Source: Paludibaculum sp. (lineage in GTDB: Bacteria > Acidobacteriota > Terriglobia > Bryobacterales > Bryobacteraceae). From it: 64,000 bases of DNA. This document shows positions 1 through 54,042 of this stretch, piece after piece. Below the pieces are notes generated by a model. The model ran no database searches. It was not told the DNA's origin and saw only the letters and a list, made by a program, of their open reading frames with translations. Position numbers and translations under genes: made by a program. Position 1 is the stretch's first letter, and each line of letters begins with the position of its first letter. Location of the stretch: positions 26,216 through 90,215 of the forward strand of contig DASXVP010000001.1 in assembly GCA_036504135.1 (NCBI GenBank), written 5' to 3'.

Positions 1-192
1 GCGAAACCCGCACAAGATCCCCTTCTTCACCCAGCCATTCACGCGCCAGCCCGATTTCGCCGAGGCATCCGGCTCCGCCGCGCGAATCCTGCCCGCATTC
101 AATGCCGCCTTGAACTCCGCGAATAGCGCGAAGTCCGCCGCCGTGTATGGCGCTGGAGGATTGGCAAACAGCGCTTCGATCCGTGCCTGCAT
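1..192 (-). CDS. dapD: tetrahydrodipicolinate N-succinyltransferase, N-terminal fragment running off the left edge
   Basis: Minus-strand translation from the ATG at 192 gives MQARIEALFANPPAPYTAADFALFAEFKAALNAGRIRAAEPDASAKSGWRVNGWVKKGILCGFR, a DapD-like N-terminus. The start overlaps the dapA stop (TAATG). It sits in a DAP operon. Confidence 0.6.
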   Translation of the reverse strand, partial: MQARIEALFANPPAPYTAADFALFAEFKAALNAGRIRAAEPDASAKSGWRVNGWVKKGILCGFR

Positions 193-1073
193 TAAATGAG
201 CCCCGCTTCCGTCAACACCTTCTCAATCCGCGCCGCCGCCGCCGGTTGCGGCGCCACCAGAGGCAGCCGCCACACCGGTTCCAGCAAGCCCATGCTGGCC
301 ATCGCCGCCTTCACCGGACCTGGATTCGATTCCACGAAATTCACTTCCATCAGCGCCAGCCACAGCCTCTGCAGCGCCCGCGCCGCCGCGAAATTCCCGT
401 CCAGGCACAACTGCGCCAACTGCGCCATCTCCGCCGGAATCTCGTTAGATGCCACCGAGATGATGCCCTTGCCGCCCAGCGCCGCCAGCGCGATGGTGAT
501 GGCATCGTCGCCGCTGAGCACGTCAAAACCATCGGGCAGCGTGGAGCAGATATGCGCCATCTGCGCGATGTTCCCGCTCGCCTCTTTGACACCCACGATG
601 TTGTCGATCTCCGCCAGCCGCCGCAGCGTCGCCGGCTCGATGTTCACGCCCGTCCGGCCCATCACGTTATACAGAATAATCGGCAAATGGATCGCGGACG
701 CAATCGCTTTATAGTGCTGGTAGAGGCCCTCCTGTGTCGGCTTGTTGTAGTACGGCGTCACGGAGAGAATGCCGTCCACGCCCAGCGCCTCCACCCTCTG
801 CGCCAGATCGATCACATCCGTGGTCCAGTACCCGCCCGCGCCGGCCAGCACAGGCACTTTGCCCTTCGCTTCTTCCACCGTGATTTCCACCACGCGCAGG
901 TGCTCTTCCAGCGAGAGAGTCGGGCTCTCCCCGGTGGTTCCGCACGGCACCAGGAAGTGAATGCCCGCCTCGATCTGCCGCCGCACCAGCTTGCGCAGCG
1001 TGACCTCGTCGAGCGTTTCATTGGATAGGAATGGCGTCACCATCGCGGTGCCGCAGCCTCGGAAAATCGACAT
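192..1073 (-). CDS. dapA: 4-hydroxy-tetrahydrodipicolinate synthase
   Basis: 293 aa ORF with MVTPF...VPCGTTGESPTLS and the YNVMGRTG motif, typical of DapA. Confidence 0.93.
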   Translation of the reverse strand: MSIFRGCGTAMVTPFLSNETLDEVTLRKLVRRQIEAGIHFLVPCGTTGESPTLSLEEHLRVVEITVEEAKGKVPVLAGAGGYWTTDVIDLAQRVEALGVDGILSVTPYYNKPTQEGLYQHYKAIASAIHLPIILYNVMGRTGVNIEPATLRRLAEIDNIVGVKEASGNIAQMAHICSTLPDGFDVLSGDDAITIALAALGGKGIISVASNEIPAEMAQLAQLCLDGNFAAARALQRLWLALMEVNFVESNPGPVKAAMASMGLLEPVWRLPLVAPQPAAAARIEKVLTEAGLI

Positions 1074-1075
1074 GG

Positions 1076-1777
1076 TCAGACCCCTTCCTCAAATAGGATA
1101 CGGCTAAAATCGTGGCAGCCCTTCTTGCCCCCGGCCAGCCAGCGCGCCGCATGCAACGCACCGCGCGCAAAGCCCTCGCGGCTGCGCGCCGTGTGGCGGA
1201 GCGTGATGGTGTCGGCTGGTGAATCAAATCCAATCTCGTGCGTCCCCGGAATCGATCCCGCGCGGTTGGATCCCACGTCCACCTTACGTTCATAGCCGGC
1301 CTCGCGCATCACGTCCACCAGCTTGATCAGCGTGCCCGACGGCGCGTCTTTCTTCGCGCTGTGGTGAATCTCCCAGGCCCAGCTCTCATAGCCAGGCTGC
1401 TGCTGCATCCATCGTGCCGCCTCGGCCACCACGCGCTGGAATATGTTTACGCCGATCGAGAAATTCGGGCTATACACCAGCCCCGTGTGATTCAACTCAA
1501 ACTGCGCCGTCACTCTTTCCAGCTCGCCAAACCAGCCGGTGGTCCCCGTCACCGTCGGCACCCGCAGCACCGCCAGCTTCTCCAGATTGAACACCGCCGC
1601 TTCCGGCGTCGTGAACTCGATTGCCGCGCTCACGTCCCGAAAGTTCTCCGCCAGAAACCCCTCGCCGTTCGCGTTATTGTTCACGTCCAGCTTCAGCGCC
1701 ACGGTGAAGCCATACTCCGGCGCCAGGCGCTCCAGCATATGCCCCATCTTTCCGTAACCCACCAGTGCGAGCTTCAT
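1076..1777 (-). CDS. dapB: 4-hydroxy-tetrahydrodipicolinate reductase
   Basis: 233 aa ORF with an N-terminal VGYGKMG dinucleotide fold and the EIHHSAKKDAPSGT signature. Confidence 0.9.
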   Translation of the reverse strand: MKLALVGYGKMGHMLERLAPEYGFTVALKLDVNNNANGEGFLAENFRDVSAAIEFTTPEAAVFNLEKLAVLRVPTVTGTTGWFGELERVTAQFELNHTGLVYSPNFSIGVNIFQRVVAEAARWMQQQPGYESWAWEIHHSAKKDAPSGTLIKLVDVMREAGYERKVDVGSNRAGSIPGTHEIGFDSPADTITLRHTARSREGFARGALHAARWLAGGKKGCHDFSRILFEEGV

Positions 1778-3144
1778 TAGAAAACCTCCGGGTCGAGCAC
1801 GGTGAAAAATTCGCGGTGCAGCGCGTCCACCGCGCGCACCAGATCCGCCCCATCCACCACCAGGCTGACATTCATCAGCGACGCCCCCTGGCTGATCATG
1901 CGGATATTGACGTCCTTCATCGCACTGAAGATCCGTTCCGCCACGCCCGACGTCTCGCGCAGCGCATCACCCACCAGGCAGATGATCGCCTGATTCGGCA
2001 GCACAGTCACCTCGGCGATCTTCGATAGCTCGGCCTCGATGTCGCCCAGAAAGCGCGTCTGATCGATGGTGAGCGAGACGCTCACCTCCGAGGTCGAGAC
2101 CATGTCCACCGGAGTCCGGTAGCGGTCGAACACTTCAAAGATCCGCCGCAGAAACCCGTGCGCCATCAGCATCCGCAGAGACCGTATGCTCACCACCGTG
2201 ATGTCTTTCTTGCAGGCAATCGACTTCACGAAATTCGAGCAAGGCACTGGCTCCGAGACGATCAGCGTGCCCTCTACCTCGGGCCGCCGCGAGTTCAGGA
2301 TCCGCACCGGAATGTTCTTCTCAATCGCCGGCAGCACCGTCGCCGGATGCAGCACCTTGGCCCCAAAATACGCCAGCTCCGCCGCCTCGACAAACGAGAT
2401 GTGCCGCACCAGATGCCCGCCCGCCAGAACGCGCGGATCGCACGTTAGCATGCCATCGACATCGGTCCAGATCTGGATCTCTTCCGCACCCAGCCCAGCC
2501 CCCGCGATGGCCGCGGAAAAGTCGCTGCCCCCGCGTCCCAGCGTCGTCGTGACGCCGTCCACCGTGGCGCCGATGAAGCCGCCCATCACCACCACCGAAT
2601 CCTCCACCATCGGCGCCGCTTTTTCGGCAAACCGCTGATACGTCCGGCTGTACAGCGGCAACGCCTGCCCGTGCCGGCTATCGGTCACCAGCACGCTCCG
2701 CGCATCCAGATGACGCGCCGCCACGCCAAACTTCGGAAACGCGAGGGCCACAATCGACGACGACAACCGCTCGCCATAACTGCACACTTCGTCCCACAGC
2801 GTCGCCGTCACCTCGCCCGCTTTGGCGATAGCCTCCAGAGTCGCTTCCAGCTCGCCGAAGTGGGTCTCCAGCAGCGCGTTCAGGGCCCCGAGATTCTCGG
2901 CCGGCACGGCTGCGCCACCCTCCTTCAGGTGAAAGGCCCGCAGCTCTTCGGCATCCCGCAGTGCGTCCTCCACATTGCCCGCCGCGGCCTTGTCAGCCGC
3001 CGCGAGCAATCGGTTCGTCGTCTTGCCCATCGCCGACACCACCACCAGAGGCTTCCGGTGCGCGTAGGATCCGACGATGCCCGCGATCCGTTCAATCGCG
3101 GCGGCACTCTCCACCGAAGTGCCGCCAAACTTCATGACGATCAT
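1777..3144 (-). CDS. lysC: aspartate kinase
   Basis: 455 aa ORF with the MKFGGTSV motif and C-terminal ACT-like repeats. Its stop overlaps the dapB start (TAATG). Confidence 0.93.
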   Translation of the reverse strand: MIVMKFGGTSVESAAAIERIAGIVGSYAHRKPLVVVSAMGKTTNRLLAAADKAAAGNVEDALRDAEELRAFHLKEGGAAVPAENLGALNALLETHFGELEATLEAIAKAGEVTATLWDEVCSYGERLSSSIVALAFPKFGVAARHLDARSVLVTDSRHGQALPLYSRTYQRFAEKAAPMVEDSVVVMGGFIGATVDGVTTTLGRGGSDFSAAIAGAGLGAEEIQIWTDVDGMLTCDPRVLAGGHLVRHISFVEAAELAYFGAKVLHPATVLPAIEKNIPVRILNSRRPEVEGTLIVSEPVPCSNFVKSIACKKDITVVSIRSLRMLMAHGFLRRIFEVFDRYRTPVDMVSTSEVSVSLTIDQTRFLGDIEAELSKIAEVTVLPNQAIICLVGDALRETSGVAERIFSAMKDVNIRMISQGASLMNVSLVVDGADLVRAVDALHREFFTVLDPEVF

Positions 3145-3148
3145 CGCG

Positions 3149-4195
3149 CTAGTCCAGCAAGCCTTCGCTATACATCAGTTCGGCGTTCAACACCGCCGCG
3201 CCCGCCGCGCCGCGCACCGTGTTGTGCCCCAGGCAAACGAATTTGAAGTCCAGCACCGGGCACGTCCGCAGCCGCCCCACCGTCACGCACATCCCGTTCT
3301 CGCGGCCCGCGTCCCGCCGCGGCTGCGGCCGGTTGTCCTCGTGCATGTACAGCACCGGCTTCTTCGGCGCGCTCGGCAGCTTGCGTTGCTGCGGAATCGC
3401 CGTAAAATTCTCGAACGCGTGCAGTACCTGCGCCCGCGTCACCTTCTCGCGCAACCCCACGCTCACTGTGATCGTGTGCCCGTCCACTACCGGCACGCGG
3501 TTGCAGTGCGCGCTCATCCGCGCCGGCAGCGGCTCAATGTGATCGCCCGCCAGCATCCCCAGAATCTTCTGCGTCTCAATCTCCATCTTGGCCTCTTCCC
3601 CGCCAATGTACGGGATCACGTTCGCCATGATGTCCATCGAAGGCACGCCCGGATAGCCCGCCCCGGAGATCGCCTGCATCGTCGTCGCGACAATCGTCTC
3701 GATCCCAAACGGAATCAGCGGCGCCAGCCCCATCGTCAATGCCACAGTGGAGCAGTTCGGATTCGTGGCAATCGCGCCCTTCCACCCGCGCGCCTTCTGC
3801 ACCGCCAGCAGTTTCAGGTGATCCGGATTGATCTCCGGCACCAGCAGCGGCACATCGCTCTCCATCCGGTGGTTCTTCGAATTCGACACCACAAAGTGCC
3901 CCGCCTCGGCAAACGCCCGCTCAATCTCAGTGGCGACGTCGGCATCCATCGCGGAGAAGACCAGCTTCGGCGTACCGGCGCCCGGTACGCAGTCTGACAC
4001 GATCAGCCCTGCCACACGCTCCGGCATCGAGCCATCCAGTCGCCACGAAGTCGCGTCCTTATACTTCTTCCCGGCCGAGCGCGAGCTCGCCCCCACGAAG
4101 GTCAGTTCAAACCAGGGATGGCCTTCGAGAAACTTCACAAAGCTCTGCCCCACCATGCCGGTGGCGCCCAGGACTCCAACTTCGATCTTCTTCAT
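3149..4195 (-). CDS. asd: aspartate-semialdehyde dehydrogenase
   Basis: 348 aa ORF with [11 protein letters not shown]-binding motif and NPNCSTV active-site Cys. Confidence 0.93.
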
Positions 4196-4244
4196 GACTT
4201 CTTTCCTTCTCTCAATTCGTCGGTGTTCGTGAATTCGCCCGCTC

Positions 4245-4272
4245 GTTCCGAGCCGCGGCCGTCAGGAAGCGG
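4245..4272. repeat. degenerate copy of the dispersed REP-like element (reverse orientation)
   Basis: GTTCCGAGCCGCGGCCGTCAGGAAGCGG resembles the CCGAGCCGCGACCGTTAGGGAGCGGTC arm seen at 15659-15685. It is intergenic between the M20 gene and asd. Confidence 0.4.
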
Positions 4273-4293
4273 CGGCAATCCGCTCCCAGCCTT

Positions 4294-5301
4294 CTAAGCC
4301 GTGAGCAGCCGCCGCACCATAGTCTGGTAAATGGTGACGGCCTCCAGCAGTTGCGCCTTCGGCACCCGCTCCTCACTGGTGTGCGCGACATGGATTGTGC
4401 CGGGGCCCATCAGATAAGGCTTGCCCCAGGCGCCTTGGAACGCCGGGATATCCGTGGTGTAAGCCACCACTGTCGTCTCAAATCCTGCCAGCGCCCCCAT
4501 ATGAAGCGCCGGAATGCAAAGTATCTCGTGGGCGTCCGCCAACCCGGCCGCGGCCGCTGCCACGTCCTCCCGCAGCTGCGCGGGGTCGTCCACCAGACGG
4601 AACATCAGCGCCGCCTCGGCTGCATCCGGGATCACGTTCGGCGCCCGCCCCCCGCTAAGAAGCCCGATATTCAAAGTGGACGCACCCAGCAACGGATGCA
4701 CCGGCAGCTCGATTGCCCGAATCCGCCCCAGCGCGTCCAGCAACTTGTTGATTGCCGATTCGCCCAGCTCCGGATAGGCCGAATGCGCCATCCGGCCCGA
4801 CGCCTTCAGCTCATACCGCAGCGCGCCCTTGCTGCCCAGCGCCAGCTTGTTTTCCGTCGGCTCGCCGTTGATGATGAAGCGCGATCCGCGCGGAGTGGTC
4901 GCCGCATGATACGCGCCCGCGCTGTTCTTCTCTTCGCCCACTACGAACAGCAACCCGAAATTCCGCGTCCCGCCCGCTAGCAACTGCTCCACCGCGCACA
5001 GCATCGCGGCAATGATCCCCTTCACATCGCACGCCCCGCGGCCCCAGATGAACGTCTCGTCCTCCCGCGCCGGAAAGAACGGCGGCACGGTGTCCAGATG
5101 CGTCGAGAGCGTCACCACCGGCTCGCCGAAACAGGCGAATACGTTGTGCCGCCGCGGCTCCACTTCCATCGTCTCCACGTGCCCGTCATACTGGCGCGCC
5201 AGATCGCCCAGCAGCGAAAGCAGGTACTCTCCGACCCGCTCCTCATTGCCGGTGATGGATTCGATATCCACCAAAGTGCGCGTGAGTGAGAAAACGTCCA
5301 T
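4294..5301 (-). CDS. M20 family metallopeptidase (DapE/ArgE-like; plausible succinyl-DAP desuccinylase of this operon)
   Basis: 335 aa ORF with the M20 motifs HLDTVP and GRGACDVKG. It is the first gene of the lysine operon. Confidence 0.8.
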   Translation of the reverse strand: MDVFSLTRTLVDIESITGNEERVGEYLLSLLGDLARQYDGHVETMEVEPRRHNVFACFGEPVVTLSTHLDTVPPFFPAREDETFIWGRGACDVKGIIAAMLCAVEQLLAGGTRNFGLLFVVGEEKNSAGAYHAATTPRGSRFIINGEPTENKLALGSKGALRYELKASGRMAHSAYPELGESAINKLLDALGRIRAIELPVHPLLGASTLNIGLLSGGRAPNVIPDAAEAALMFRLVDDPAQLREDVAAAAAGLADAHEILCIPALHMGALAGFETTVVAYTTDIPAFQGAWGKPYLMGPGTIHVAHTSEERVPKAQLLEAVTIYQTMVRRLLTA

Positions 5302-21805: not shown

Positions 21806-22198
21806 CTACCCCCGCACCCGCTCCACATCCGTAGCCCCGAAATCCGCCCCCTTGAACAACAACGGCTCCCCCGAACACTGTGCCAGCGCATACGCGGCGC
21901 AGTCTCCAAAGTTCAGCCCCGCCGGGTGCCGCCCCTTGCCAAACCGCCGAAACGCCCGGCGGGCCACAACCAACTGTTCCTCATCAAAGGCCACCGTCTC
22001 AATGGAGGCCCTTATCAAAAACTGATCCAGTTGCGCTCCCGCGTTCTCACCTCGTCGACTATCCAAGACCATTGCCGCCTCCAGCACCGAAACCGCTGAA
22101 ATCAATCGACGCGGCGCCTCCTCGATCAACGCCACGAACTCAGCCCTCTCGGGCTCATCCTGAAAGATCGCCACAATCGCGGAAGTGTCCAACGTCAT
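21806..22198 (-). CDS. vapC: type II toxin VapC (PIN domain)
   Basis: 130 aa ORF with MTLDTSAIVAI... and acidic PIN residues, ending ...NFGDCAAYALA. ATGA-type overlap with the antitoxin gene. Confidence 0.9.
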   Translation of the reverse strand: MTLDTSAIVAIFQDEPERAEFVALIEEAPRRLISAVSVLEAAMVLDSRRGENAGAQLDQFLIRASIETVAFDEEQLVVARRAFRRFGKGRHPAGLNFGDCAAYALAQCSGEPLLFKGADFGATDVERVRG

Positions 22199-22452
22199 CT
22201 TGTGGGAATTCCAAGCTCATCGTAACCAAGAATCTCGTCGTCAGTCATATCCGAGATCACCGGCAGCCGGGCGCAACGCAAAGCGATCTCGTTCAACTCA
22301 TCACGAAGAGCTTGCCCCCCCCGGCTCCGCCGCACCCGGTCATACCGCTCCGCCACCGCGATCCGAATGGCCACGGTAATCGTTTCCCCAGTCAACTCCG
22401 CCAACTGCCGGGTCAACTTCTCAGTCTCCTCGTTCTTGATGCTGATCGGCAT
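22195..22452 (-). CDS. vapB: type II antitoxin VapB (FitA/Rv0623-like)
   Basis: Start at MPISIKNEETEKLTRQLAELTGETIT, the typical N-terminus of this antitoxin family. It is directly upstream of vapC. Confidence 0.8.
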   Translation of the reverse strand: MPISIKNEETEKLTRQLAELTGETITVAIRIAVAERYDRVRRSRGGQALRDELNEIALRCARLPVISDMTDDEILGYDELGIPTR

Positions 22453-22455
22453 AGT

Positions 22456-22501
22456 GTTTCTACCTATCATGAATTCTATCATGATAGGTAGAAACGTTCA
22501 A
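22456..22501 (-). promoter_or_regulatory. sigma-70-like promoter with overlapping operator palindrome for vapBC
   Basis: Minus strand reads TTGAAC-17 nt-TAGAAT (22501-22473). A perfect 16-bp inverted repeat GTTTCTACCTATCATG / CATGATAGGTAGAAAC (22456-22495) fills the promoter spacer and the 5' UTR, and the -10 hexamer lies in its 8-nt centre. Confidence 0.6.
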
Positions 22502-31946: not shown

Positions 31947-32357
31947 TCACTTCTTTTCCGGCGGCCTCTCGGTCACCAGTTTGTCTCCACCCTGCCGCTT
32001 CACTTTTTCCAGACCGCATGAGCCCAACGTCTTGAATCCCTTTTCTTCGAGCATGGCCGCCGCACGGGCAGCCCTTCCACCGCTGCTTCAAAGGGTGACG
32101 ATCACTTTATCCCTGGGGATCTCCTTCAGCCGCCCTTCCAACTGGCTCACCGGGATGTTGACATAGCCCTTCAGCGTGCCCAGCTTGGAGATCTCCGACG
32201 GCTCCCGCACATCCAGGAAAAAGATGTTCTCAGGCTTCTCCAGGAGTTTCGCCAACTCCTCTGGATTCAGCTCTTTCACGGGCTTTGCGCTCTGCCCGCA
32301 AGCGATGCCAAACAGCATGGCCGCGCCTAGCGCGCACGCACCAAAGAAGGTCCTCAT
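31947..32357 (-). CDS. exported single-domain rhodanese with in-frame TGA at the catalytic position (candidate selenocysteine; otherwise a pseudogene)
   Basis: The track ORF stops at TGA 32088-32090 after ...RDKVIVTL. The same frame continues SSGGRAARAAAMLEEKGFKTLG...PPEKK to TGA at 31947. That reconstitutes the rhodanese loop [C]xxGxR with the stop in place of Cys. Confidence 0.6.
32055..32073 (-). promoter_or_regulatory. SECIS-like stem-loop downstream of the in-frame UGA
   Basis: The mRNA reads GGCUGCC-CGUGC-GGCGGCC: 7 bp including one G-U pair, and a 5-nt loop containing GU. The stem starts 14 nt after the UGA. Confidence 0.4.
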
Positions 32358-32382
32358 GGCCGGAAGTGTAACATAGACAGAT

Positions 32383-33579
32383 ATGAGTCCTTTGCCAGAC
32401 GAGTTTTACCGCATCTCCAAGTTGCCCCCTTACGTGTTCGCGACGGTCAATGAAATGAAGGCAAAGCTGCGCGCAGCGCAGTATGACGTCGTGGATTTCG
32501 GCATGGGCAACCCGGATGGAGCCACGCCGCGCGCGATCGTTTCGAAACTGGCAGAGGCAGCACGCAACCCCAAGAACCACCGCTACTCCGTCTCGCGGGG
32601 CATCCCGAACCTGCGTCACGAGATCTGCAAACGGTACCACCGGAACTATGGCATCCAGCTCGATCCGGAATCGGAGGCCATCGTCACCATCGGCTCCAAG
32701 GACGCCCTGGCGCACCTGATGTTCGCGGTCATCGGCCCCGGCGATCAGGTGGTGACGCCCGCGCCCTGCTACCCCATCCACCAGTGGGGCGTGATCATGG
32801 CCGAGGGCGAATCCGTGCCGTTGCCGGCCGACAAGCCGTCCGAATTTCTCAACGGCCTGGAGCACCTCTACCGCAAGTCCATCAAGCCGCCGAAGCTCAT
32901 CCTGATCAACTACCCGCACAACCCCACCACGACGTGCGTGGATCTGGATTTCTTCAAAGAAATCGTGCGGATGGCCAGCCTGCACGGCACCATGGTGCTG
33001 CATGATTTCGCCTACGCCGACCTCTGCTTTGACGGCTACAAAGCCCCCAGCATTCTCGAAGTGGACGGCGCCAAGGAAGTGGCCGTCGAGATGTTCTCGA
33101 TGACCAAGAGCTACAACATGGCAGGCTGGCGCGTCGGCTTCTGCCTGGGCAATCCGAAGATGATCAAGGCGCTGTCGCGCATCAAGAGCTACCTGGATTA
33201 CGGAATCTTCCAGCCCATCCAGATCGCCGCCATCATCGGCCTCCGCGAGTGCGAGGAGGACGTCCACAAGATCTGCAACCTCTATCAGCGCCGGCGCGAC
33301 CTGCTGGTGGACGGCCTCAATGCCGCCGGTTGGCCCGTGGAAAAGCCCAAGGCATCCATGTTCGTGTGGGCTCCCATCCCGGAGAGCTTCCGCGGCATCG
33401 GCTCGCTGGAGTTCAGCAAACTGCTGCTCGAAAAGGCGTTGGTGGCCATCTCGCCCGGCATCGGCTTCGGCCCGGCAGGTGACGGCCATGTGCGCTTCGC
33501 GCTGATCGAGAATCACCACCGCTCGCGCCAGGCGCTGCGCTGCATCAAACAGTTCCTGAAAGACGAGAAGGTGGGGTAG
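32383..33579 (+). CDS. alaC: class I/II PLP aminotransferase, AlaC (glutamate-pyruvate aminotransferase)-like
   Basis: 398 aa ORF that is near-colinear with my recollection of E. coli AlaC: RISKLPPYVF, DFGMGNPDGATP, SRGIP.LR, DPESEAIVTIGSK, SKSYNMAGWR, HVRFALIEN. Confidence 0.88.
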   Translation: MSPLPDEFYRISKLPPYVFATVNEMKAKLRAAQYDVVDFGMGNPDGATPRAIVSKLAEAARNPKNHRYSVSRGIPNLRHEICKRYHRNYGIQLDPESEAIVTIGSKDALAHLMFAVIGPGDQVVTPAPCYPIHQWGVIMAEGESVPLPADKPSEFLNGLEHLYRKSIKPPKLILINYPHNPTTTCVDLDFFKEIVRMASLHGTMVLHDFAYADLCFDGYKAPSILEVDGAKEVAVEMFSMTKSYNMAGWRVGFCLGNPKMIKALSRIKSYLDYGIFQPIQIAAIIGLRECEEDVHKICNLYQRRRDLLVDGLNAAGWPVEKPKASMFVWAPIPESFRGIGSLEFSKLLLEKALVAISPGIGFGPAGDGHVRFALIENHHRSRQALRCIKQFLKDEKVG

Positions 33580-38367: not shown

Positions 38368-40122
38368 CTATTTCTTCTCTTCCAGCAGGTCGTCGCGGCG
38401 TACGCGCTCGCCTTTGAACAGCACGTTCCAGATGCGCTCGGTGACGGTGATGTCTTCGAGCGGGTTGCCCTCGACGATCAGGAGAGTTGCTTCCGCGCCG
38501 GGCTGGATGACGCCCAGACGGCCTGAGGCGCCGATGGCCTGCGCGGCGCGGGCGGTGGCATCCAACAGCACATCCTTGGGCTTTGCACCGGCCGCCACGC
38601 GGAGCTTCATTTCGCGATGAATGGCGGGCCCGTGGGGCAAGCCGGGCAGGCCGGACAGAGTCATCATCGGTCCGGGCGGTGGTAGTTGTGGAGTGGCGCC
38701 GGACTTGGGCGGATGGGTGGCTGCCCAGGCGCGGAGCTTCTCCAGAGCGGCGGGCTTCACTACCTGCTGGGTGAGCGTGTCTTTGAGCAGATCGTGATTG
38801 CCGGCGACGGAATCGAGAAGCACCAGCGAGCGGCTGCCCTGCGGCGGCGCTTCGCCGAGAATCACTTCAGCTCCGGCCATTTCGCCGGCGCCCACGCGGC
38901 GCTGCAACTCCTTGGCGATCTTCATGGGGTCGGGCGTGGTGCGGATGGCGGTGACGCCGCAATAGAGATACGCTCCGAGCGCGCGCTGCATGGCTCGGGT
39001 CTGCCTGACGCCATCGGGATCGGGCGCACCGGTGCCGGGCAGGAAGAGATTGACGTTGGTATCGATGAGGCCGGGCAGCACGGTCTTGCCCGAGGCTTCC
39101 AGAGTCTCGGCCTTCAGAGACTTGGCGTCCGGCGCCGAGCCTTCGAAGATGGCCTCGATGCGGCCTCCCTTGACCAGGACGGAGCCGCGCTCGATCACGC
39201 GGCCGTCGCCGGTGCCGGTGAAGATGCGCGCGTCCTTGATGAGCCAGGTCTGGCCGCGGCGCATCTGGCGGGCGAGGATCTGAGTCTCTTTGAGGTTGTC
39301 CTTGGAGTACGTCTGATACATGCCGATAGCCACGAACGGCGCGAGCACGCCGAGGAGCCAGAGCTTGGCGCCGGGCTTGAGCACGTCGCCCTTTTCCCAG
39401 CGGAAGAGCTTCACGGAGAGCAGCAGCGCGATCAGCATGGTGGCGACCAGCGCGCAGAGCGGCACCCAGTTCTGGGCCAGCGACTGCTCGCGCACGAGGA
39501 TGTTCTGCATGCCCATGTAGAGGTGAGTGGAGGGCAGGAACTGGGCGACCGATTGCAGCCAATCCGGCAGGATGTTGAGCGGGATGGTGGCGCCGGAGAG
39601 CATCAGCATGGGCAGGTAGAGAAGCTGAATGACCACCTGGCTCTCGGCCATGGAGTTGACCACCGAGGCGATGATGAGGCCGATGCCGCGGAAGGCCAGC
39701 ACACCGGCGCTGACCATTACGAGAAGCGAGAGCGAATGCTCGGGCACGGGCATGCCGTAGCGCAAGCGGGCGATGACGAGAAAGAAGATGACGGTGGGCA
39801 GGAAGACGATCCAGCCTGTGAAGAGCGAGCCGACGAGAATGGGCGCCGGGGTGATTGGCGCCACCTTGAAGCGGCGTAGGATGCCGGCCTCGCGCTCAGC
39901 GGTGGCGCGCATGCCGCCTCCGAAGAAGCCGGTGCCCAACACGCCCAGCATCAGCACCATGGTCACCACCTGAGCCATGGCGCCAGTGGACGTGGAGGCT
40001 CCGAAGCCCTCGCCGAAGGCGATGAAGAACACCAGCGGCATCAGGTAGTTGAAGAAGAGCACCAGGCGGTCCCGGATGGTCAGTTGCAGCGTGCTCTTGA
40101 TGTAAGCGAGATAAGCCTTCAT
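38368..40122 (-). CDS. ABC-2 type permease fused to a degenerate amidohydrolase-like C-terminal domain
   Basis: 584 aa ORF. The N-terminal ~250 aa form an ABC-2 permease, followed by an extra hydrophobic helix. Then IKDARIF...GRIEAI...LPGLIDTNVNL and C-terminal GVIQPGAEATLLIVEGNPLEDI, typical amidohydrolase flanks. Confidence 0.8.
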   Translation of the reverse strand: MKAYLAYIKSTLQLTIRDRLVLFFNYLMPLVFFIAFGEGFGASTSTGAMAQVVTMVLMLGVLGTGFFGGGMRATAEREAGILRRFKVAPITPAPILVGSLFTGWIVFLPTVIFFLVIARLRYGMPVPEHSLSLLVMVSAGVLAFRGIGLIIASVVNSMAESQVVIQLLYLPMLMLSGATIPLNILPDWLQSVAQFLPSTHLYMGMQNILVREQSLAQNWVPLCALVATMLIALLLSVKLFRWEKGDVLKPGAKLWLLGVLAPFVAIGMYQTYSKDNLKETQILARQMRRGQTWLIKDARIFTGTGDGRVIERGSVLVKGGRIEAIFEGSAPDAKSLKAETLEASGKTVLPGLIDTNVNLFLPGTGAPDPDGVRQTRAMQRALGAYLYCGVTAIRTTPDPMKIAKELQRRVGAGEMAGAEVILGEAPPQGSRSLVLLDSVAGNHDLLKDTLTQQVVKPAALEKLRAWAATHPPKSGATPQLPPPGPMMTLSGLPGLPHGPAIHREMKLRVAAGAKPKDVLLDATARAAQAIGASGRLGVIQPGAEATLLIVEGNPLEDITVTERIWNVLFKGERVRRDDLLEEKK

Positions 40123-48502: not shown

Positions 48503-48727
48503 ATGAGGACGACATTGCACATTGATGATGACGCGTACAAGATTGTGGTGCGGTACGCGAAGCTGCGGAAGATCCGGGTGGGGCAAGCGGTCTCGGACCT
48601 GATCGTCCGAGGTTCGCAGGCGGAGGTGCCGGTGAAAGAGATGGGCGGATTGCTCATATTCGATCCGCCGAAGGATTTTCCAAAGATCACGACGGAACAG
48701 GTGAAGCGGTTGGCAGAGGAGTGGTGA
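48503..48727 (+). CDS. type II antitoxin (VapB-like)
   Basis: 74 aa ORF starting MRTTLHIDDDAYKIVVRYAKL.... Its stop overlaps the downstream PIN gene. Confidence 0.7.
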   Translation: MRTTLHIDDDAYKIVVRYAKLRKIRVGQAVSDLIVRGSQAEVPVKEMGGLLIFDPPKDFPKITTEQVKRLAEEW

Positions 48728-48729
48728 GC

Positions 48730-49149
48730 ATGCAGAGCCTGCTAGACGTGAATGTGCTGGTCGCGCTGTTTTGGCCGCAGCACGCGAAGCACCAGGCCGC
48801 GAAGGAGTGGTTTCAGCAACAAGCTGGCGTGCGGGGCGGTTGGGCGACTTGCGCCATCACGCAGGCGGGGTTTGTGCGGGTGCTCTCCAATCCGGTTGTG
48901 AATCAAGGCGCCTTGTCGGTGCTGAGAACGACTTTGATCCTGGAAGAGAATCTGAAGCGGCCGGGGCACAGTCTCTGGTGCATGGACGTGAACTGGCCGG
49001 AGGCGCTGCGATTGTCCGGGGCGGCGATTGACGGATTCCAGCAGGTGACGGACCTGTACCTGATCGGGCTGGCGGTGAAGCACAAGGGGCGACTGGTGAC
49101 ATTTGACCGCGCCTTGGGGAGGCTGAGCGAGAGAGTGGTGGTGATTTAG
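48730..49149 (+). CDS. vapC: PIN-domain toxin VapC
   Basis: MQSLLDVNVLVALFWPQH...VTDLYLIGLAVKHKGRLVTFD. An alternative GTG start lies at 48721. Confidence 0.85.
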   Translation: MQSLLDVNVLVALFWPQHAKHQAAKEWFQQQAGVRGGWATCAITQAGFVRVLSNPVVNQGALSVLRTTLILEENLKRPGHSLWCMDVNWPEALRLSGAAIDGFQQVTDLYLIGLAVKHKGRLVTFDRALGRLSERVVVI

Positions 49150-49248: not shown

Positions 49249-52200
49249 TCACTGGAGGCTGATTTTGTTGGCTTCCAGGGTGGTGCCTAGGACGCGTTGG
49301 ACTTGGGCGATGGCTTTGTTCTGGAGGAGGTAGGCGCCTACGAGACGGCGGCGGGAATCTACCAGTTCGTTCTGGCGGGTGAGGACCAGGAAGTTGGTGC
49401 TCTCGCCGGTGGAGAAGAGGCGGATTTCGCTTTCGAGTTTTTCGAGGGAGGCTTTTTCGCTGGCTCGGGCGGCGGTGATGCGCTGGCGGGCGGTCTCTAG
49501 GGCCTGGAGGGCGGTGCGGACCTCGGCGTTGATGCCTTGTTCGAGTTGGAGGCGGGCGAGTTTCAGGCGGCGCTCGTTGATGGCGACCTGATCGAGCTGG
49601 GCCTCGGCCGCGCGGTTGCGGGGGTTCCATTCGATGGCGAGGCCGGCCTGGACGGATTGGGAGCCGAAGCCGAACATATTATTGAGGGCCTGGCCGTAGC
49701 CGCCGATGTAGGACGTGGGGATGGAGCCGCCGCCGATGCTGATGGGGGGAAGCGGAGGCAGGCCGGCCAGGGTGGAGAGATCGTTGACGCGACCGAACAG
49801 CGGGCCGAAGGCGGCGGCGAAACCGCCACTGCTGCTGGATTGCGGCTGGGTGCCGGCGAGTCCGGCGCTGGAGTAGTTGGCTGTGAGATTGACTTGGGGC
49901 TTGGTGGCGCTGCGAGCCAGGTTCTTCTGCACTTCATTCTGCTCGACGCGGAGTTCCAGGGAGCGCAGCTCGGGCCGTTTCTGAATGGCGATGGTGGTGG
50001 CCTCGCGCACGTCCTCGGTGGGGAGATCGGAGGGGCGGCGATCTGTAGGGACCAGACGCTCGTTCCAGAGGGCGTCTTCGCGATCGGGCGTGAGGATGAC
50101 CTTGAGCTGATTTTCAGCAGCGGTGACGAGACCGATGGCGGAGGAGTAGGAATCGATGCGGCGCTGAAGTTCAGCCTCGGAGGCGGACGATTCGATGGGG
50201 GCGAGCGTGCCGGCCGAGATCTGGCGCAGGTTGCGATCATGCTGTTCCTGGGCGAGGCGAACGCCATCGCTGGCGACGACCGCATCTTCGATGGCGGCGG
50301 CGAGATCCCAGTAGGCGCTGACGGCGCGGGTGATGACATCGCTGACGCGGGTCTCGAAATCTGAGCGGGATTGCTGATTCTGCTTCATGCGGATCTTGAG
50401 CGTGGCTCGATCCAGATCCTCCTGGCGGTAGCGCCAGAGGGGGAGCGCGAAGCCGGCAGTGAGGCGCGAGGTGAAGGTGGGGTTGAGGGCGGCGAAGGGG
50501 CTGTTGGTGGAGGTGCGGTTGTTGTCGAAATCGACGTGGAACGACATGCCCTGCCAGGGGGTGCGCTGGCGGAGAGAGACGTTGTTATTGGCGAGATGCT
50601 CGACAAGTTTTCCGTTGGCGCCAGCGAGGGTGTTGGAAACGGGCGTGTTGCGGGTCTCGATGGAGGGGTTGTAGAGCACGACGGCGTCGAAAGAGCCACG
50701 GGCGCCCTGAATGGCCGAGAGGGCGGTGGCCATGTTGGTGCGCTCGACCTCGATTTCGAGGTTGTTCTTGAGGGCCAGTTGCAGGGCCTCGTCGAGGGCG
50801 ATCTTCTTTTCGAGAGCGGTGACGCCGACTCTTTTGGCCTGGGAGACGGACTCGCGCGCCTTGGCCATTTCGGGCGTATCGGGGCGCAGATCCTGGGCTC
50901 GGCCAGGCCACGTGAGGAACAGTCCTAGGAGGAGGAGCGGGACAACGATGGCGTTGACGGTCTTCTTGCGGCGGCCGAGGGGATCGATGATTCTCCTCCA
51001 GCGGGGGGAGTTGGCGAGGTCGTCGAAGATCGAGTAGGCCACGGGCGTGACAAGCAGCGTCAGGATCAGGGCCATGGACTGGCCGCCGATGACGACGATG
51101 GCCACGGTGCGGCGGCTGCCAGCGCCGGCGCCTGTGCCGAAGGCGAGCGGCGACATACCCGCGACAAGCGCGGCTGTGGTCATCAGGATGGGGCGTAGAC
51201 GATCGTCGCAGCCCTGATAGATGGCTTCGAGGCGCGACATGCCCTCCCGGCGCAGGCCCTTGATGTGATCGATCTGAAGAATGGAGTTCTTCTTGACGAT
51301 GCCGAAGAGGACCAGGACGCCGAGCGACGTATAGACGATGGAGAAGTTCTCGCCGACCAGGAAGAGGCTCAGAAGCGCGAAGGGGATGGAGAGCGGGAGG
51401 CTGAGCAGAATGGTGACGGGATCGATGAAGCTCTCATAGTTGGCGGCGAGGATCATGTACATGAACACAACCGAGAGGATGAAGGCGAAGAGGAAGTTCT
51501 GGACGGCGCGGCCGAGTTCCTTGGAGCGGCCGATGGCGCCGTAGCGATAGTCGGGTGGCAGATCCAGCGCCTCCATTTCGGCGGCGGCGATGGTGAGGAG
51601 GTCACCGAGAGCGAGGCCCTTGTTGATGTTGGCGCTGATCATGATGCGCCGCTGGCGGTTCCAGCGGTCGATGGAGGTCGGTCCGGTGCCGGCCGACAAG
51701 GAGGCGACGTTGGCGATGGGCACGTTGCCGAGGGTGCCGGAGGGTACATAGAGGCGCTCGAGAGCGGCGGACGAATTGCGGAAGGGTTTGCTGACACGGA
51801 GCAGAACGTCATAGCGATCGTCACCTTCCTTGTAAGTGGTGACCTGATCGTCGCCACCGACGAGGATGCGCATGGCGTTGGCGACCTGGGCAACGTTGAC
51901 GTTGAGATCGGCTGCCTTGTCGCGATTGATGGTGACGCGCACTTCGGGCTTGCCGGACTCGTAAGACATATCGAGATCGTTGACACCGTTGACTTGGCGC
52001 AGCTTGGCCATGAGGCGGTTGGAATAAACCTCGAGCTTGGCGAGGTCGGGGCCCTGGATGGAGTATTGGAAGTCGCGGTCGGCGGCGCCGCTGATGAGCG
52101 CGGGGAGTTGCACGCCGACGGTGAGGTCCTTGTATTTGGCGAGGCGCTCGCGGGCCATGTCCATGAGCTGGCGCTGTGTCTCTTTGCGATGTTTGACATC

Positions 52201-54042
52201 GACGAGCTCGACGAGCACGGCGGCGCGATCGACCTGGCGGCGCTGATCGGCTCCGATGGTGGTGAGGAGATCGCGGACACCGGGAAGGGTTTTCAGATCA
52301 TTTTCGACCTGGGCGATAACTTCGGTGGTGCCTTCGAGCGAGCTGCCGACGGGCATGCGGACGGAGACTTCGAACTCGCTCTGGTCCTCGACGGGCAGGA
52401 AATCGACGCCCATGTTCTGGACCATAGGGACGGTGGTCATGACGACGAGGATGGAGATGGTGACGATGACCCAGCGGTGGGCCATTGACCATTCGAGCAG
52501 CTTGCGGTAGGGCACGGAGGTGAGCTTGTGGAAGAGGCCGGCCTTGGTGTCTTCAGCCTCTTTGCCGAGCTTGAGGAAGCGCGAGCAGAGCATGGGCGTG
52601 AGGGTGAAGCTGACCAGGAGGGAGACAGCGATGGCGAAGGCTGCGGTGTACCCGAAGCTCGACATGAAGCGGCCGACGATGCCGGGCATGATGGCAATGG
52701 GGATGAAGATGATGATGAGGGAGAGCGTGGTGGCGAGGACGGCGAGACCGATCTCGCGGGTGCCCTCGGCGGCTGCTTCCATCGCGGTCATGTGCTTCTC
52801 TTCCATGTGGCGGAAGATGTTTTCCAGCACGACGATGGCGTCGTCGATCACGATGCCCACCACAAGGGTGAGACCCAACATGGTGATCTGATTGAGCGTG
52901 AAGCCCATCATGTTAAGCAGCGTGAATGTGGAGATGATGGACGTGGGGATGGCGATGGCGGCGATGACGGTGGAGCGCCAATTGCGGATAAAGAGCAGCA
53001 CTATAATACCGGCGAAGACGCCGCCTAGGATGAGGTGCTCCTGGACTGCTTCAAAGGCGGCCTCGATAAAGCCGGACTGATCGCGGGCGTAGGTGATTTC
53101 GAAATCAGGCGGGAGCGAGGACTTGAGCTCGTTGAGACGGTTCTTGACGTTGGCGATGACATCGAGCGAGTTGGTGCCGGCCTGCTTGCGGACGGCGAGG
53201 ACGACGGCGGACTTGCCGTTCAGGCGGGCGGCGGAGCGGGGCTCCTCGTAGCCGTCGACGACCTGGGCGATATCGCCGATGCGGATGGGGGCGCCGTTGA
53301 GGTTGCCGACGACGACGCGTTCAAAATCGATGGGGCGTTCCACGCGGCCGAGCGTACGGAGGGAGAGCTCGCGATGGCCCTGATCGATGCGGCCGCCGGG
53401 GATTTCGATATTCTGGGCGGCGAGGGCGCCGCGAACCTGCTCGATATTGAGATTGTAGGAGTAGAGCTTGTCGCCATCGAGGACGACCTGGATCTGGCGT
53501 TTGCGATCGCCGACGAAGCGGACCTGGCCGACGCCGGCGAGGGACTCGATATTCTTCTTCAGGCGGTCGTCGACGAGCTTGGTAATCTCGCGCAGATCCC
53601 GTTTGGCGGAGACGACGACGTTGAGTACGGGGGCGGCATCGGTGGCCACCTTCTCGACAACGGGCTGCTTGACGTCCTTGGGCAGGGTGCCGAGGACGGT
53701 GGATATCTTGTCACGGACTTCCTGGGCGGCGACCTCGGGGTCCTTTTCCAGCATGAAGCCGATGGTGATGATGGAGATGCCTTCGGCGGAGGTGGAGTTG
53801 AGATCGTCGATGCCGCTGATGGTATTGATGACCTCTTCGAGGGGCTTGGTGACCTGCGATTCCACCTCTTCGGGCGAGGCGCCGGGGAGGACGGTCTGGA
53901 TATTGACGAACGGGAATTCGACTTTAGGGAAGTAGTCGACGCCGAGCTTGCGGTAGCTGGCCAGGCCGATGACGACCAGGGCCAGGATGAGCATGGTGGC
54001 AAAGACGGGGCGGCGGATGCAGAGTTGAGCTAGTTTTTGCAT
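49249..54042 (-). CDS. RND (AcrB-type) efflux permease fused in frame to a TolC-type outer membrane factor
   Basis: Single 1597-codon ORF. The N-terminal ~1015 aa are AcrB-like (MQKLAQLCIRRPVFATMLIL... with 12 TM helices). Then RRKKTVNAIVVPLLLLGLFLTWPGRAQD, then a two-repeat TolC/OEP domain running to ...LGTTLEANKISLQ. Confidence 0.85.
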   Translation of the reverse strand: MQKLAQLCIRRPVFATMLILALVVIGLASYRKLGVDYFPKVEFPFVNIQTVLPGASPEEVESQVTKPLEEVINTISGIDDLNSTSAEGISIITIGFMLEKDPEVAAQEVRDKISTVLGTLPKDVKQPVVEKVATDAAPVLNVVVSAKRDLREITKLVDDRLKKNIESLAGVGQVRFVGDRKRQIQVVLDGDKLYSYNLNIEQVRGALAAQNIEIPGGRIDQGHRELSLRTLGRVERPIDFERVVVGNLNGAPIRIGDIAQVVDGYEEPRSAARLNGKSAVVLAVRKQAGTNSLDVIANVKNRLNELKSSLPPDFEITYARDQSGFIEAAFEAVQEHLILGGVFAGIIVLLFIRNWRSTVIAAIAIPTSIISTFTLLNMMGFTLNQITMLGLTLVVGIVIDDAIVVLENIFRHMEEKHMTAMEAAAEGTREIGLAVLATTLSLIIIFIPIAIMPGIVGRFMSSFGYTAAFAIAVSLLVSFTLTPMLCSRFLKLGKEAEDTKAGLFHKLTSVPYRKLLEWSMAHRWVIVTISILVVMTTVPMVQNMGVDFLPVEDQSEFEVSVRMPVGSSLEGTTEVIAQVENDLKTLPGVRDLLTTIGADQRRQVDRAAVLVELVDVKHRKETQRQLMDMARERLAKYKDLTVGVQLPALISGAADRDFQYSIQGPDLAKLEVYSNRLMAKLRQVNGVNDLDMSYESGKPEVRVTINRDKAADLNVNVAQVANAMRILVGGDDQVTTYKEGDDRYDVLLRVSKPFRNSSAALERLYVPSGTLGNVPIANVASLSAGTGPTSIDRWNRQRRIMISANINKGLALGDLLTIAAAEMEALDLPPDYRYGAIGRSKELGRAVQNFLFAFILSVVFMYMILAANYESFIDPVTILLSLPLSIPFALLSLFLVGENFSIVYTSLGVLVLFGIVKKNSILQIDHIKGLRREGMSRLEAIYQGCDDRLRPILMTTAALVAGMSPLAFGTGAGAGSRRTVAIVVIGGQSMALILTLLVTPVAYSIFDDLANSPRWRRIIDPLGRRKKTVNAIVVPLLLLGLFLTWPGRAQDLRPDTPEMAKARESVSQAKRVGVTALEKKIALDEALQLALKNNLEIEVERTNMATALSAIQGARGSFDAVVLYNPSIETRNTPVSNTLAGANGKLVEHLANNNVSLRQRTPWQGMSFHVDFDNNRTSTNSPFAALNPTFTSRLTAGFALPLWRYRQEDLDRATLKIRMKQNQQSRSDFETRVSDVITRAVSAYWDLAAAIEDAVVASDGVRLAQEQHDRNLRQISAGTLAPIESSASEAELQRRIDSYSSAIGLVTAAENQLKVILTPDREDALWNERLVPTDRRPSDLPTEDVREATTIAIQKRPELRSLELRVEQNEVQKNLARSATKPQVNLTANYSSAGLAGTQPQSSSSGGFAAAFGPLFGRVNDLSTLAGLPPLPPISIGGGSIPTSYIGGYGQALNNMFGFGSQSVQAGLAIEWNPRNRAAEAQLDQVAINERRLKLARLQLEQGINAEVRTALQALETARQRITAARASEKASLEKLESEIRLFSTGESTNFLVLTRQNELVDSRRRLVGAYLLQNKAIAQVQRVLGTTLEANKISLQ

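Follow-up and report, generated by a model that had tools for sequence, protein, structure and literature searches.

Gene structure and the in-frame TGA

The window, as the whole 64,000-nucleotide stretch analysed here is called (Paludibaculum sp., contig DASXVP010000001.1, positions 26,216 to 90,215), carries on its minus strand a small rhodanese gene with an in-frame TGA at its catalytic codon, which is considered here as a candidate codon for selenocysteine (Sec, U). An ATG-initiated open reading frame (ORF), 32357..32088, encodes 89 amino acids (aa) ending in IPRDKVIVTL and stops at TGA 32090-32088; the frame beyond it reads SSGGRAARAAAMLEEKGFKTLGSCGLEKVKRQGGDKLVTERPPEKK (46 codons), up to a second TGA at 31949-31947. 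An initial sequence-only reading of the locus had proposed that the unshifted continuation of the ORF halted at TGA 32088-32090 supplies the rhodanese active-site loop, and retranslation bore this out. It had also placed the stop codon at the catalytic Cys of the motif C-x-x-G-x-R; this placement holds, because the Pfam Rhodanese match (PF00581), obtained with the stop translated as Cys, runs across the TGA (50.6 bits vs. a cut-off of 22.2, E = 2.9e-13, profile positions 2-88 of 102). The features of the gene are as follows.

31947..32357, minus strand: full read-through coding sequence (CDS) by translation, 136 codons including the predicted Sec90, true stop TGA 31949-31947
32298..32357, minus strand: signal-like segment, residues 1-20, MRTFFGACALGAAMLFGIAC, ending in a lipobox-like FGIAC with Cys20 (judged by pattern)
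32028..32264, minus strand: rhodanese domain, residues 32-110 (PF00581), spanning the TGA
32091..32093, minus strand: codon before the UGA (CTT, Leu89), part of a conserved U-UGA-A context
32088..32090, minus strand: UGA codon, residue 90 (predicted Sec), at the catalytic position of the loop U-S-S-G-G-R
32055..32073, minus strand: hairpin resembling a selenocysteine insertion sequence (SECIS), with 5' arm GGCUGCC 32073-32067, loop CGUGC 32066-32062 and 3' arm GGCGGCC 32061-32055
32016..32018, minus strand: second conserved Cys, Cys114 in G-S-C-G-L, 24 residues past the Sec position

The locus is identical, with the same TGA, in contig Ga0376481_000020 (627,278 bp; locus L082) of Joint Genome Institute (JGI) metagenome 3300035523. 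The JGI annotation calls two genes there, of 76 and 35 aa (L082:10001-10372, equivalent to window 31947-32318), and sets the start at Met14, by which the conserved MR... N-terminus is removed. The nearest genome is JADKID01 (locus L001), an independently assembled metagenome-assembled genome (MAG) of the Bryobacterales, an acidobacterial order to which Solibacteraceae and Bryobacteraceae belong; its protein is 97% identical and the TGA is kept. Between the UGA and the true stop, JADKID01 differs from the window at four nucleotides, all of them synonymous.

Homologues and the codon at the catalytic position

At the protein level, 169 relatives were retrieved from 5.8 billion clusters; the 120 that were listed (98% to about 50% identity) are for the most part 76-97 aa long. 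All 31 aligned short database proteins end at one column, immediately before the catalytic position, and all nine full-length relatives (121-137 aa) have Cys at that position, in the motif T-[AL]-C-x-x-G-x-R-A. No full-length version containing U was present in the public sources examined; the NCBI names for the family are "hypothetical protein" or "rhodanese-like domain-containing protein", and the NCBI entries MBL0158118.1, HEY3439144.1, MBA3972993.1 and NWF82261.1 are products of 85 to 90 aa.

Among genomes sampled at one per species (GTDB release 232), 484 encoded relatives turned up, and the 80 top-ranking loci were retrieved as DNA; almost all of these come from MAGs of Bryobacterales or other Acidobacteriota. 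The catalytic codon was compared in an alignment of 78 copies, each from a different species: the window's own and 77 that lie in the 80 retrieved loci. It is TGA in 64, TGC in 12 and TGT in two, with no case of TAA or TAG. In all copies that no contig end truncates, 41-67 codons can be read beyond the TGA before the frame closes. Downstream of the TGA, divergence at codon positions 1, 2 and 3 amounts to 0.29, 0.28 and 0.58, and upstream to 0.27, 0.14 and 0.52; with its peak at third codon positions, the downstream part shows the evolution of a translated sequence. Its consensus is U-n-x-G-g-R-A-A-R-A-A-a-x-L...G-y-k-v-x-g-s-C-G-L, and both flanks of the Sec/Cys column are conserved (...IVT[LA]-U/C-x-x-G-x-R-A...). 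The orthologue alignment that had been called for thus comprises 64 TGA and 14 Cys forms, together with a hairpin that covaries (see below). The contrary picture, in which close relatives all have TGC and no conserved hairpin, is contradicted by TGA in 64 of 78 copies and by the conservation of the hairpin.

Two loci deserve separate mention. The Bryobacterales MAG at locus L045 has the gene twice in tandem, with about 400 nt between the copies (2585-2659 and 2984-3058), both with TGA at the catalytic codon and with the hairpin displaced by a few nucleotides towards the UGA. Locus L008 (DYJN01000086.1), labelled 'Arcobacter sp.' with an isolate tag ending in _66_22, contains an acidobacterial-type copy that is 62% identical and has both TGA and hairpin, which makes mislabelling or contamination of the bin probable.

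A covarying hairpin downstream of the UGA

The hairpin GGCUGCC-CGUGC-GGCGGCC, with GU in its apical loop, was found as the sequence-only reading had described it, starting 14 nt past the UGA. It lies within the CDS, in codons for R-A-A-R-A-A-A, and its stem includes one G-U pair; no bulged U was identified in the stem. As summarised in PMC13188914, the bacterial SECIS model of Zhang and Gladyshev (2005) comprises a loop of 3-9 nt on a stem of 4-16 bp, a G within the first two loop positions that is usually followed by G or U, a spacing of 16-37 nt between UGA and loop, and a minimum free energy (MFE) of -7.5 kcal/mol or lower. The window hairpin has a 5-nt loop on a 7-bp stem, G at loop position 2 followed by U, a spacing of 21 nt and a folding energy of -13.7 kcal/mol, so that the SECIS-compatible position and shape claimed for it agree with all four published constraints.

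That the hairpin exceeds chance follows from comparison across species and not from the folding of the single sequence. In a gap-free alignment of 63 TGA-bearing sequences (A2; helix formed by columns 27-33 with 39-45), standard pairs fill 82% of helix cells vs. 71.5% in shuffles, and the covariation score is 0.294 vs. 0.138 in shuffles (a value that none of 500 reaches), with slid registers scoring at most 0.08. The variation is carried by pair 33-39 (GC 29, CG 27), pair 30-42 (CG 38, UA 14, UG 7) and pair 27-45 (GC 20, CG 10, AU 2); every compensatory change is synonymous, because each of these pairs links the third position of one Ala or Arg codon to that of another. Pairs 29-43 (CG in 61 of 63) and 31-41 (GC in 57 of 63) are made by the first two bases of Ala codons and are uninformative, and pair 32-40 changes only from C-G to U-G. 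RNAalifold, run without a supplied structure, predicts the same helix. A lower stem CCCUUU/AAAGGG that appears in the MFE fold of the window was discarded, being absent from this family-wide prediction.

The hairpin belongs to the TGA forms. All of its inner five base pairs are formed in 55 of 64 TGA copies vs. one of 14 Cys copies (Fisher p = 2.8e-8). Of the 64 TGA copies, 52 have CGUGC as the loop, and in 54 the Arg codon that provides the loop G-U is CGT. This codon accounts for 7.3% of Arg codons in window genes, and at the gene's other conserved Arg only 3 of 64 copies use it.

Sequence context of the UGA

The base before the TGA is T in 63 of 64 Sec forms vs. two of 14 Cys forms (p = 2.6e-11), and the codon to which it belongs is, in Sec forms, GCT or CTT, codons that this GC-rich genome seldom uses (GCT makes up 5.4% of Ala codons). 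The base after the UGA is A in 59 of 64 TGA forms (window 32087-32093, loci L001-L080). The resulting U-UGA-A context is not known to be part of the SECIS model. TGA also serves as an ordinary stop, closing 12 of 36 long window ORFs as well as 21 of the family genes themselves; a genetic-code reassignment of UGA was rejected on the count of window ORFs.

Rhodanese domain and second conserved cysteine

The fold was examined on an AlphaFold model of a full-length Cys homologue, P0020 (mean predicted local distance difference test score 83.4), rather than of the window protein. This model is a complete single alpha/beta rhodanese domain and matches the single-domain rhodanese 3GK5 (100 residues) with a target-normalised TM-score of 0.90 and a root-mean-square deviation of 1.1 A. 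Strand 77-82 of the model closes with the catalytic Cys82, after which come helix 86-97, strand 101-107 and helix 108-113. By this model U90-S-S-G-G-R would be the six-residue active-site loop placed after the catalytic strand, and the 89-aa product would be without the catalytic loop and all later elements of the fold.

The column of Cys114 holds Cys in 61 of 63 Sec forms and 13 of 14 Cys forms. In the P0020 model the equivalent residue lies at the C-terminal end of strand 101-107, in the same sheet as the catalytic strand, and a position near the catalytic residue is plausible for it.

A profile search of 1.84 billion representative proteins returned mostly multi-repeat rhodaneses (P0260-P0266), among them one protein with up to 16 matched rhodanese stretches in 2327 residues.

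N-terminus, export and gene neighbourhood

In the N-terminal segment MRTFFGACALGAAMLFGIAC, a charged start leads into a hydrophobic core (highest Kyte-Doolittle average over 12 residues, 2.1) and then the terminal FGIAC; by the same pattern criteria, nearly all family N-termini open with a charged residue ahead of a hydrophobic stretch. The lipobox-like FGIAC is found in the window subclade and A-x-A/Q sites in other members; a twin-arginine-like start, MRRLFLK (RRxFLK), was observed at loci L017, L020, L055, L057 and L066. The export route therefore appears to differ between subclades, as judged from these patterns. The proposal of an exported Sec enzyme with a signal- or lipoprotein-like peptide is compatible with these signal-like N-termini; export itself is a prediction from pattern.

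An aminotransferase gene adjoins the rhodanese gene in 17 of the 80 loci, in close relatives only. In the window, the rhodanese gene (minus strand) and a class I/II aminotransferase gene (plus strand, 32383-33579) have divergent starts 25 nt apart (32357-32383); with so little space between them, either each promoter lies inside the other gene or one of the starts is miscalled. A pattern scan found no sigma-70-like promoter.

Sec-decoding machinery in the lineage

Candidatus Solibacter usitatus Ellin6076, a member of the Bryobacterales, is recorded as SelD+, SelA+ and SelB+ with eight known selenoproteins (Peng et al. 2016, PMC5029168 Tables S1 and S2). With SelB of S. usitatus (PMC1794560 supplement) as query, all 120 matches listed are at least 75% identical to it and carry the winged-helix domain PF09107, most of them also PF09106; those with an organism name are mostly from Solibacter, Bryobacteraceae, Sulfopaludibacter or other Acidobacteriota. 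The Sec-decoding machinery therefore exists in the lineage (Bryobacterales), which contradicts its absence at the level of the lineage rather than of the window's own genome.

Beside selB in a long-contig MAG (L083:11006-13435), priA is called in four pieces, which looks like the result of assembly frameshifts. A 97-nt "tRNA-Thr" in L020 was dropped because it had no Rfam match. Pfam scans of the 49 major window ORFs found no other split selenoprotein; a scan of the window for further genes with in-frame TGA by third-position GC was too noisy, as antisense frames passed it too.

Weighing the explanations

Taken together, the conserved UGA, its alternation with Cys codons, the translated downstream frame, the covarying hairpin restricted to UGA forms and the rhodanese fold make it very probable, at the level of sequence, that the UGA encodes Sec at the catalytic residue of a functional rhodanese gene. 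The support lies at the level of sequence, RNA and modelled fold, and several results weigh against this conclusion. Pfam scans of the 49 major ORFs of the 64-kb window gave no match to selA, selB or selD; ARAGORN found no selC (tRNA-Sec) in the window or in L001-L082, and the window is without any tRNA gene. Folded as a single sequence, the hairpin is no better than chance (z = -0.56, with 56 of 200 shuffles folding equally well), and Rfam gave no SECIS or tRNA-Sec match at gathering or permissive thresholds, returning one spurious long non-coding RNA at E = 9.8. Four of the seven stem pairs are a free by-product of GC facing GC in the Ala codons of the peptide A-A-R-A-A-A, so that the third-position pairs alone are informative, and in the TGA copies at L043, L045, L048, L069, L078 and L079 the hairpin is shifted or different. 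There is also no conserved family-wide gene neighbour across the 80 loci, and thus no operon partner to hint at a substrate. The doubt that is left concerns mostly the sel machinery in the window's own genome and the possible insertion of another residue.

A pseudogene, in which TGC or TGT mutated to a nonsense TGA and the downstream frame is decaying, was the alternative named at the outset. It would fit the existence of Cys homologues and the fact that annotators call only a fragment of 76 to 89 aa, but it is at odds with the TGA shared by 64 species-level copies, with a downstream frame that is open in all copies not cut by a contig end and diverges most at third positions, and with the four synonymous differences out of four from JADKID01; it is exceedingly improbable. 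Even less credence is due to a sequencing or assembly error: some MAG contigs do show split genes, such as the priA of L083, but the TGA recurs in L082, in the independent JADKID01 and in 62 further assemblies of varied technologies. Both explanations are rejected because the TGA, the open frame and the third-position divergence are shared across species.

Termination at the UGA would be in keeping with the ordinary use of TGA as a stop in this genome and with the two genes of the JGI annotation; the products would then be the 89-aa fragment and possibly a 35-aa peptide (MLEEK...), with the downstream conservation caused otherwise. The 89-aa product would however be without the catalytic loop, helix 86-97 and strand 101-107 (P0020 numbering), relatives do not conserve the start codon ATG of the 35-aa ORF (most have AAAIL or AADML there), the stop is always TGA and never TAA or TAG, and hairpin covariation is limited to TGA forms, all of which leaves termination very improbable. 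Slightly more room is left for recoding of the UGA to a residue other than Sec, through a tRNA(Cys) with UCA anticodon and a SelB paralogue, a suppressor allo-tRNA, or hairpin-stimulated near-cognate read-through. PMC5389517 describes both SelC*-type tRNA(Cys) and acidobacterial allo-tRNAs able to suppress stops, and the inserted residue is not decidable from sequence; yet the same source places selC* in Firmicutes, Thermodesulfobacteria, Nitrospirae and Proteobacteria and not in Acidobacteria, the spacing and loop G-U of the hairpin match a SelB-dependent SECIS, ordinary four-domain SelB with winged-helix domains is abundant in the lineage, and recoding of UGA to Cys offers no gain over a TGC codon. 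Such recoding is accordingly judged improbable.

Relation to known selenoproteins and rhodaneses

Rhodanese-like selenoproteins had been said to be known already, and the literature agrees: a 2026 review (PMC13188914) distinguishes five rhodanese selenoprotein forms, of which forms 2 and 4 ("rhodanese-related sulfurtransferase") contain UxxG, a COG0607/PspE-type rhodanese selenoprotein is form 1 in PMC9312934, and rhodanese selenoprotein genes are known from the Sargasso Sea (PMC1088965) and from deltaproteobacterial symbionts. Like the catalogued UxxG forms, the family described here has Sec for the catalytic Cys (as predicted), the motif U-x-x-G-x-R-A-A, and a SECIS hairpin in the codons right after the active-site loop; its own features are the Acidobacteriota-centred distribution, the signal peptide (by pattern) and the second conserved Cys. 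The Sargasso form 4 (COG2897; ...YTYuQAGVRAAH...DGSMGEW) aligns over 25 residues only, with 48% identity, and the window protein is therefore not form 4, which moreover has C-terminal D-G-S-M-G-E-W where this family has G-S-C-G-L. Form 2 (COG0607/PspE type; MBM9537886.1) shares UxxG and a COG0607-like character; compared by motif and description, the family described here may or may not be the same form. Membership in form 3 (NF041203, rhodanese_LYCAU, CxU), likewise a small single-domain rhodanese that can contain Sec, was rejected at 28.6 bits vs. 115, with the motif V-T-L-U-S rather than L-Y-C-A-U.

Among Cys-containing rhodaneses, E. coli PspE and Wolinella succinogenes Sud (1QXN) resemble the window protein in having a signal peptide and one rhodanese domain of about 100 residues, and the proposed role, that of an extracytoplasmic sulfane sulfur carrier, is shared. 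The matches are weak (PspE NF007627 E = 3.7e-5; Sud 1QXN E = 2.6e-4), and membership in the PspE equivalogs was rejected (NF007627 23.9 bits vs. 102; TIGR02981 19.1 vs. 126). PspE and Sud use Cys where the window protein has the predicted Sec, and PspE has a single Cys, unlike this family with its second conserved one. The nearest solved structures, both by profile (E = 2.9e-11) and by fold (Foldseek E = 1e-8, 33-38% identity), are the rhodanese domains of 3ICR (B. anthracis CoADR-RHD), 3NTD (Npsr, the NADH-dependent persulfide reductase of Shewanella) and 5VE3 (a persulfide dioxygenase-rhodanese fusion). Those domains are cytoplasmic and fused to a catalytic partner, whereas the window protein stands alone and has a signal-like peptide and a predicted Sec.

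The hairpin resembles the SECIS elements of the E. coli fdhF/fdnG type in lying within the CDS right after the UGA and in having a small apical loop with G-U; the primary sequences are unrelated. In Sargasso contig AACY01016424 (PMC1088965 supplement), a possible hairpin GUGCG-UGCGG-CGCAC was seen by eye in the G-V-R-A-A codons just past the UGA of an unrelated rhodanese selenoprotein (uQAGVRAAH), a placement as in the window gene. The active-site peptide G-x-R-A-A may lend itself to the building of a SECIS.

Other features of the window

Two further minus-strand ORFs have unusual domain combinations. The ORF at 49249-54042 (1597 residues) joins an AcrB/RND transporter (5-1006) to an outer-membrane efflux protein (OEP, 1347-1586), which points to an unusual fusion or else to a stop missing between two genes, and that at 38368-40122 (584 residues) contains an ABC-2 permease (5-237) and a C-terminal amidohydrolase fragment (503-574). 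A lysine/diaminopimelate cluster occupies 192-5301 on the minus strand (DHDPS, DapB, aspartate kinase, aspartate-semialdehyde dehydrogenase and an M20 peptidase). Toxin-antitoxin-like pairs lie at 22195-22482, with an Rv0623-like antitoxin (PSK_trans_fac), and at 48503-49149, where a small ORF is followed by a PIN-domain protein.

Proposed mechanism and implications

In the proposed mechanism, the intact gene would encode a 136-residue precursor of a single-domain rhodanese with Sec at UGA 32090-32088. Following the standard bacterial pathway, the hairpin 32073-32055 would act as a SECIS and recruit SelB with GTP and Sec-tRNA(Sec), and at the ribosome paused on the UGA the insertion of Sec would compete with release factor RF2. 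The signal-like N-terminal peptide would take the protein out of the cytoplasm, probably as a lipoprotein in the window subclade. By analogy with the fold and the nearest structures, the selenolate of Sec90 may accept sulfane sulfur from thiosulfate, polysulfide or persulfide, forming a Se-S intermediate from which the sulfur would then be handed to an acceptor. Cys114 may form a selenenylsulfide with Sec90 and so resolve or protect it.

A broader reading, which is rather unlikely as a whole, would see here an uncatalogued, Acidobacteriota-wide group of exported selenoenzymes with Sec, Tat or lipoprotein signals, in which Sec90 and Cys114 form a selenenylsulfide pair and the function is that of an oxidoreductase or of persulfide/polysulfide handling rather than of a plain sulfurtransferase; the U-UGA-A context, held by rare codons, would in this joint proposal be a further recoding determinant besides the SECIS. 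If true, it would imply an extracytoplasmic function of these enzymes in largely aerobic soil bacteria.

More modestly, the family is an unannotated new member of the already catalogued rhodanese selenoproteins, Acidobacteriota-centred and marked by a signal peptide and a second Cys; its novelty is lowered by the UxxG rhodanese selenoproteins catalogued before. Current understanding is not overturned, since rhodanese selenoproteins and acidobacterial use of Sec are both documented. Dozens of soil acidobacteria, including many Bryobacterales species, carry the gene, which the sources examined store as fragments of 76 to 97 residues or as two split genes. Its recognition corrects the annotation and makes a widespread addition to the small known selenoproteome of the Acidobacteria, a dominant soil phylum. 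For the evolution of SECIS elements, the family offers a natural experiment in which a hairpin made almost entirely of Ala and Arg codons is maintained by synonymous compensation, with the hairpin-less Cys forms as an internal control. As a predicted exported Sec-rhodanese with a second Cys, the protein would be a tractable model for the benefit of selenium in extracytoplasmic persulfide chemistry.

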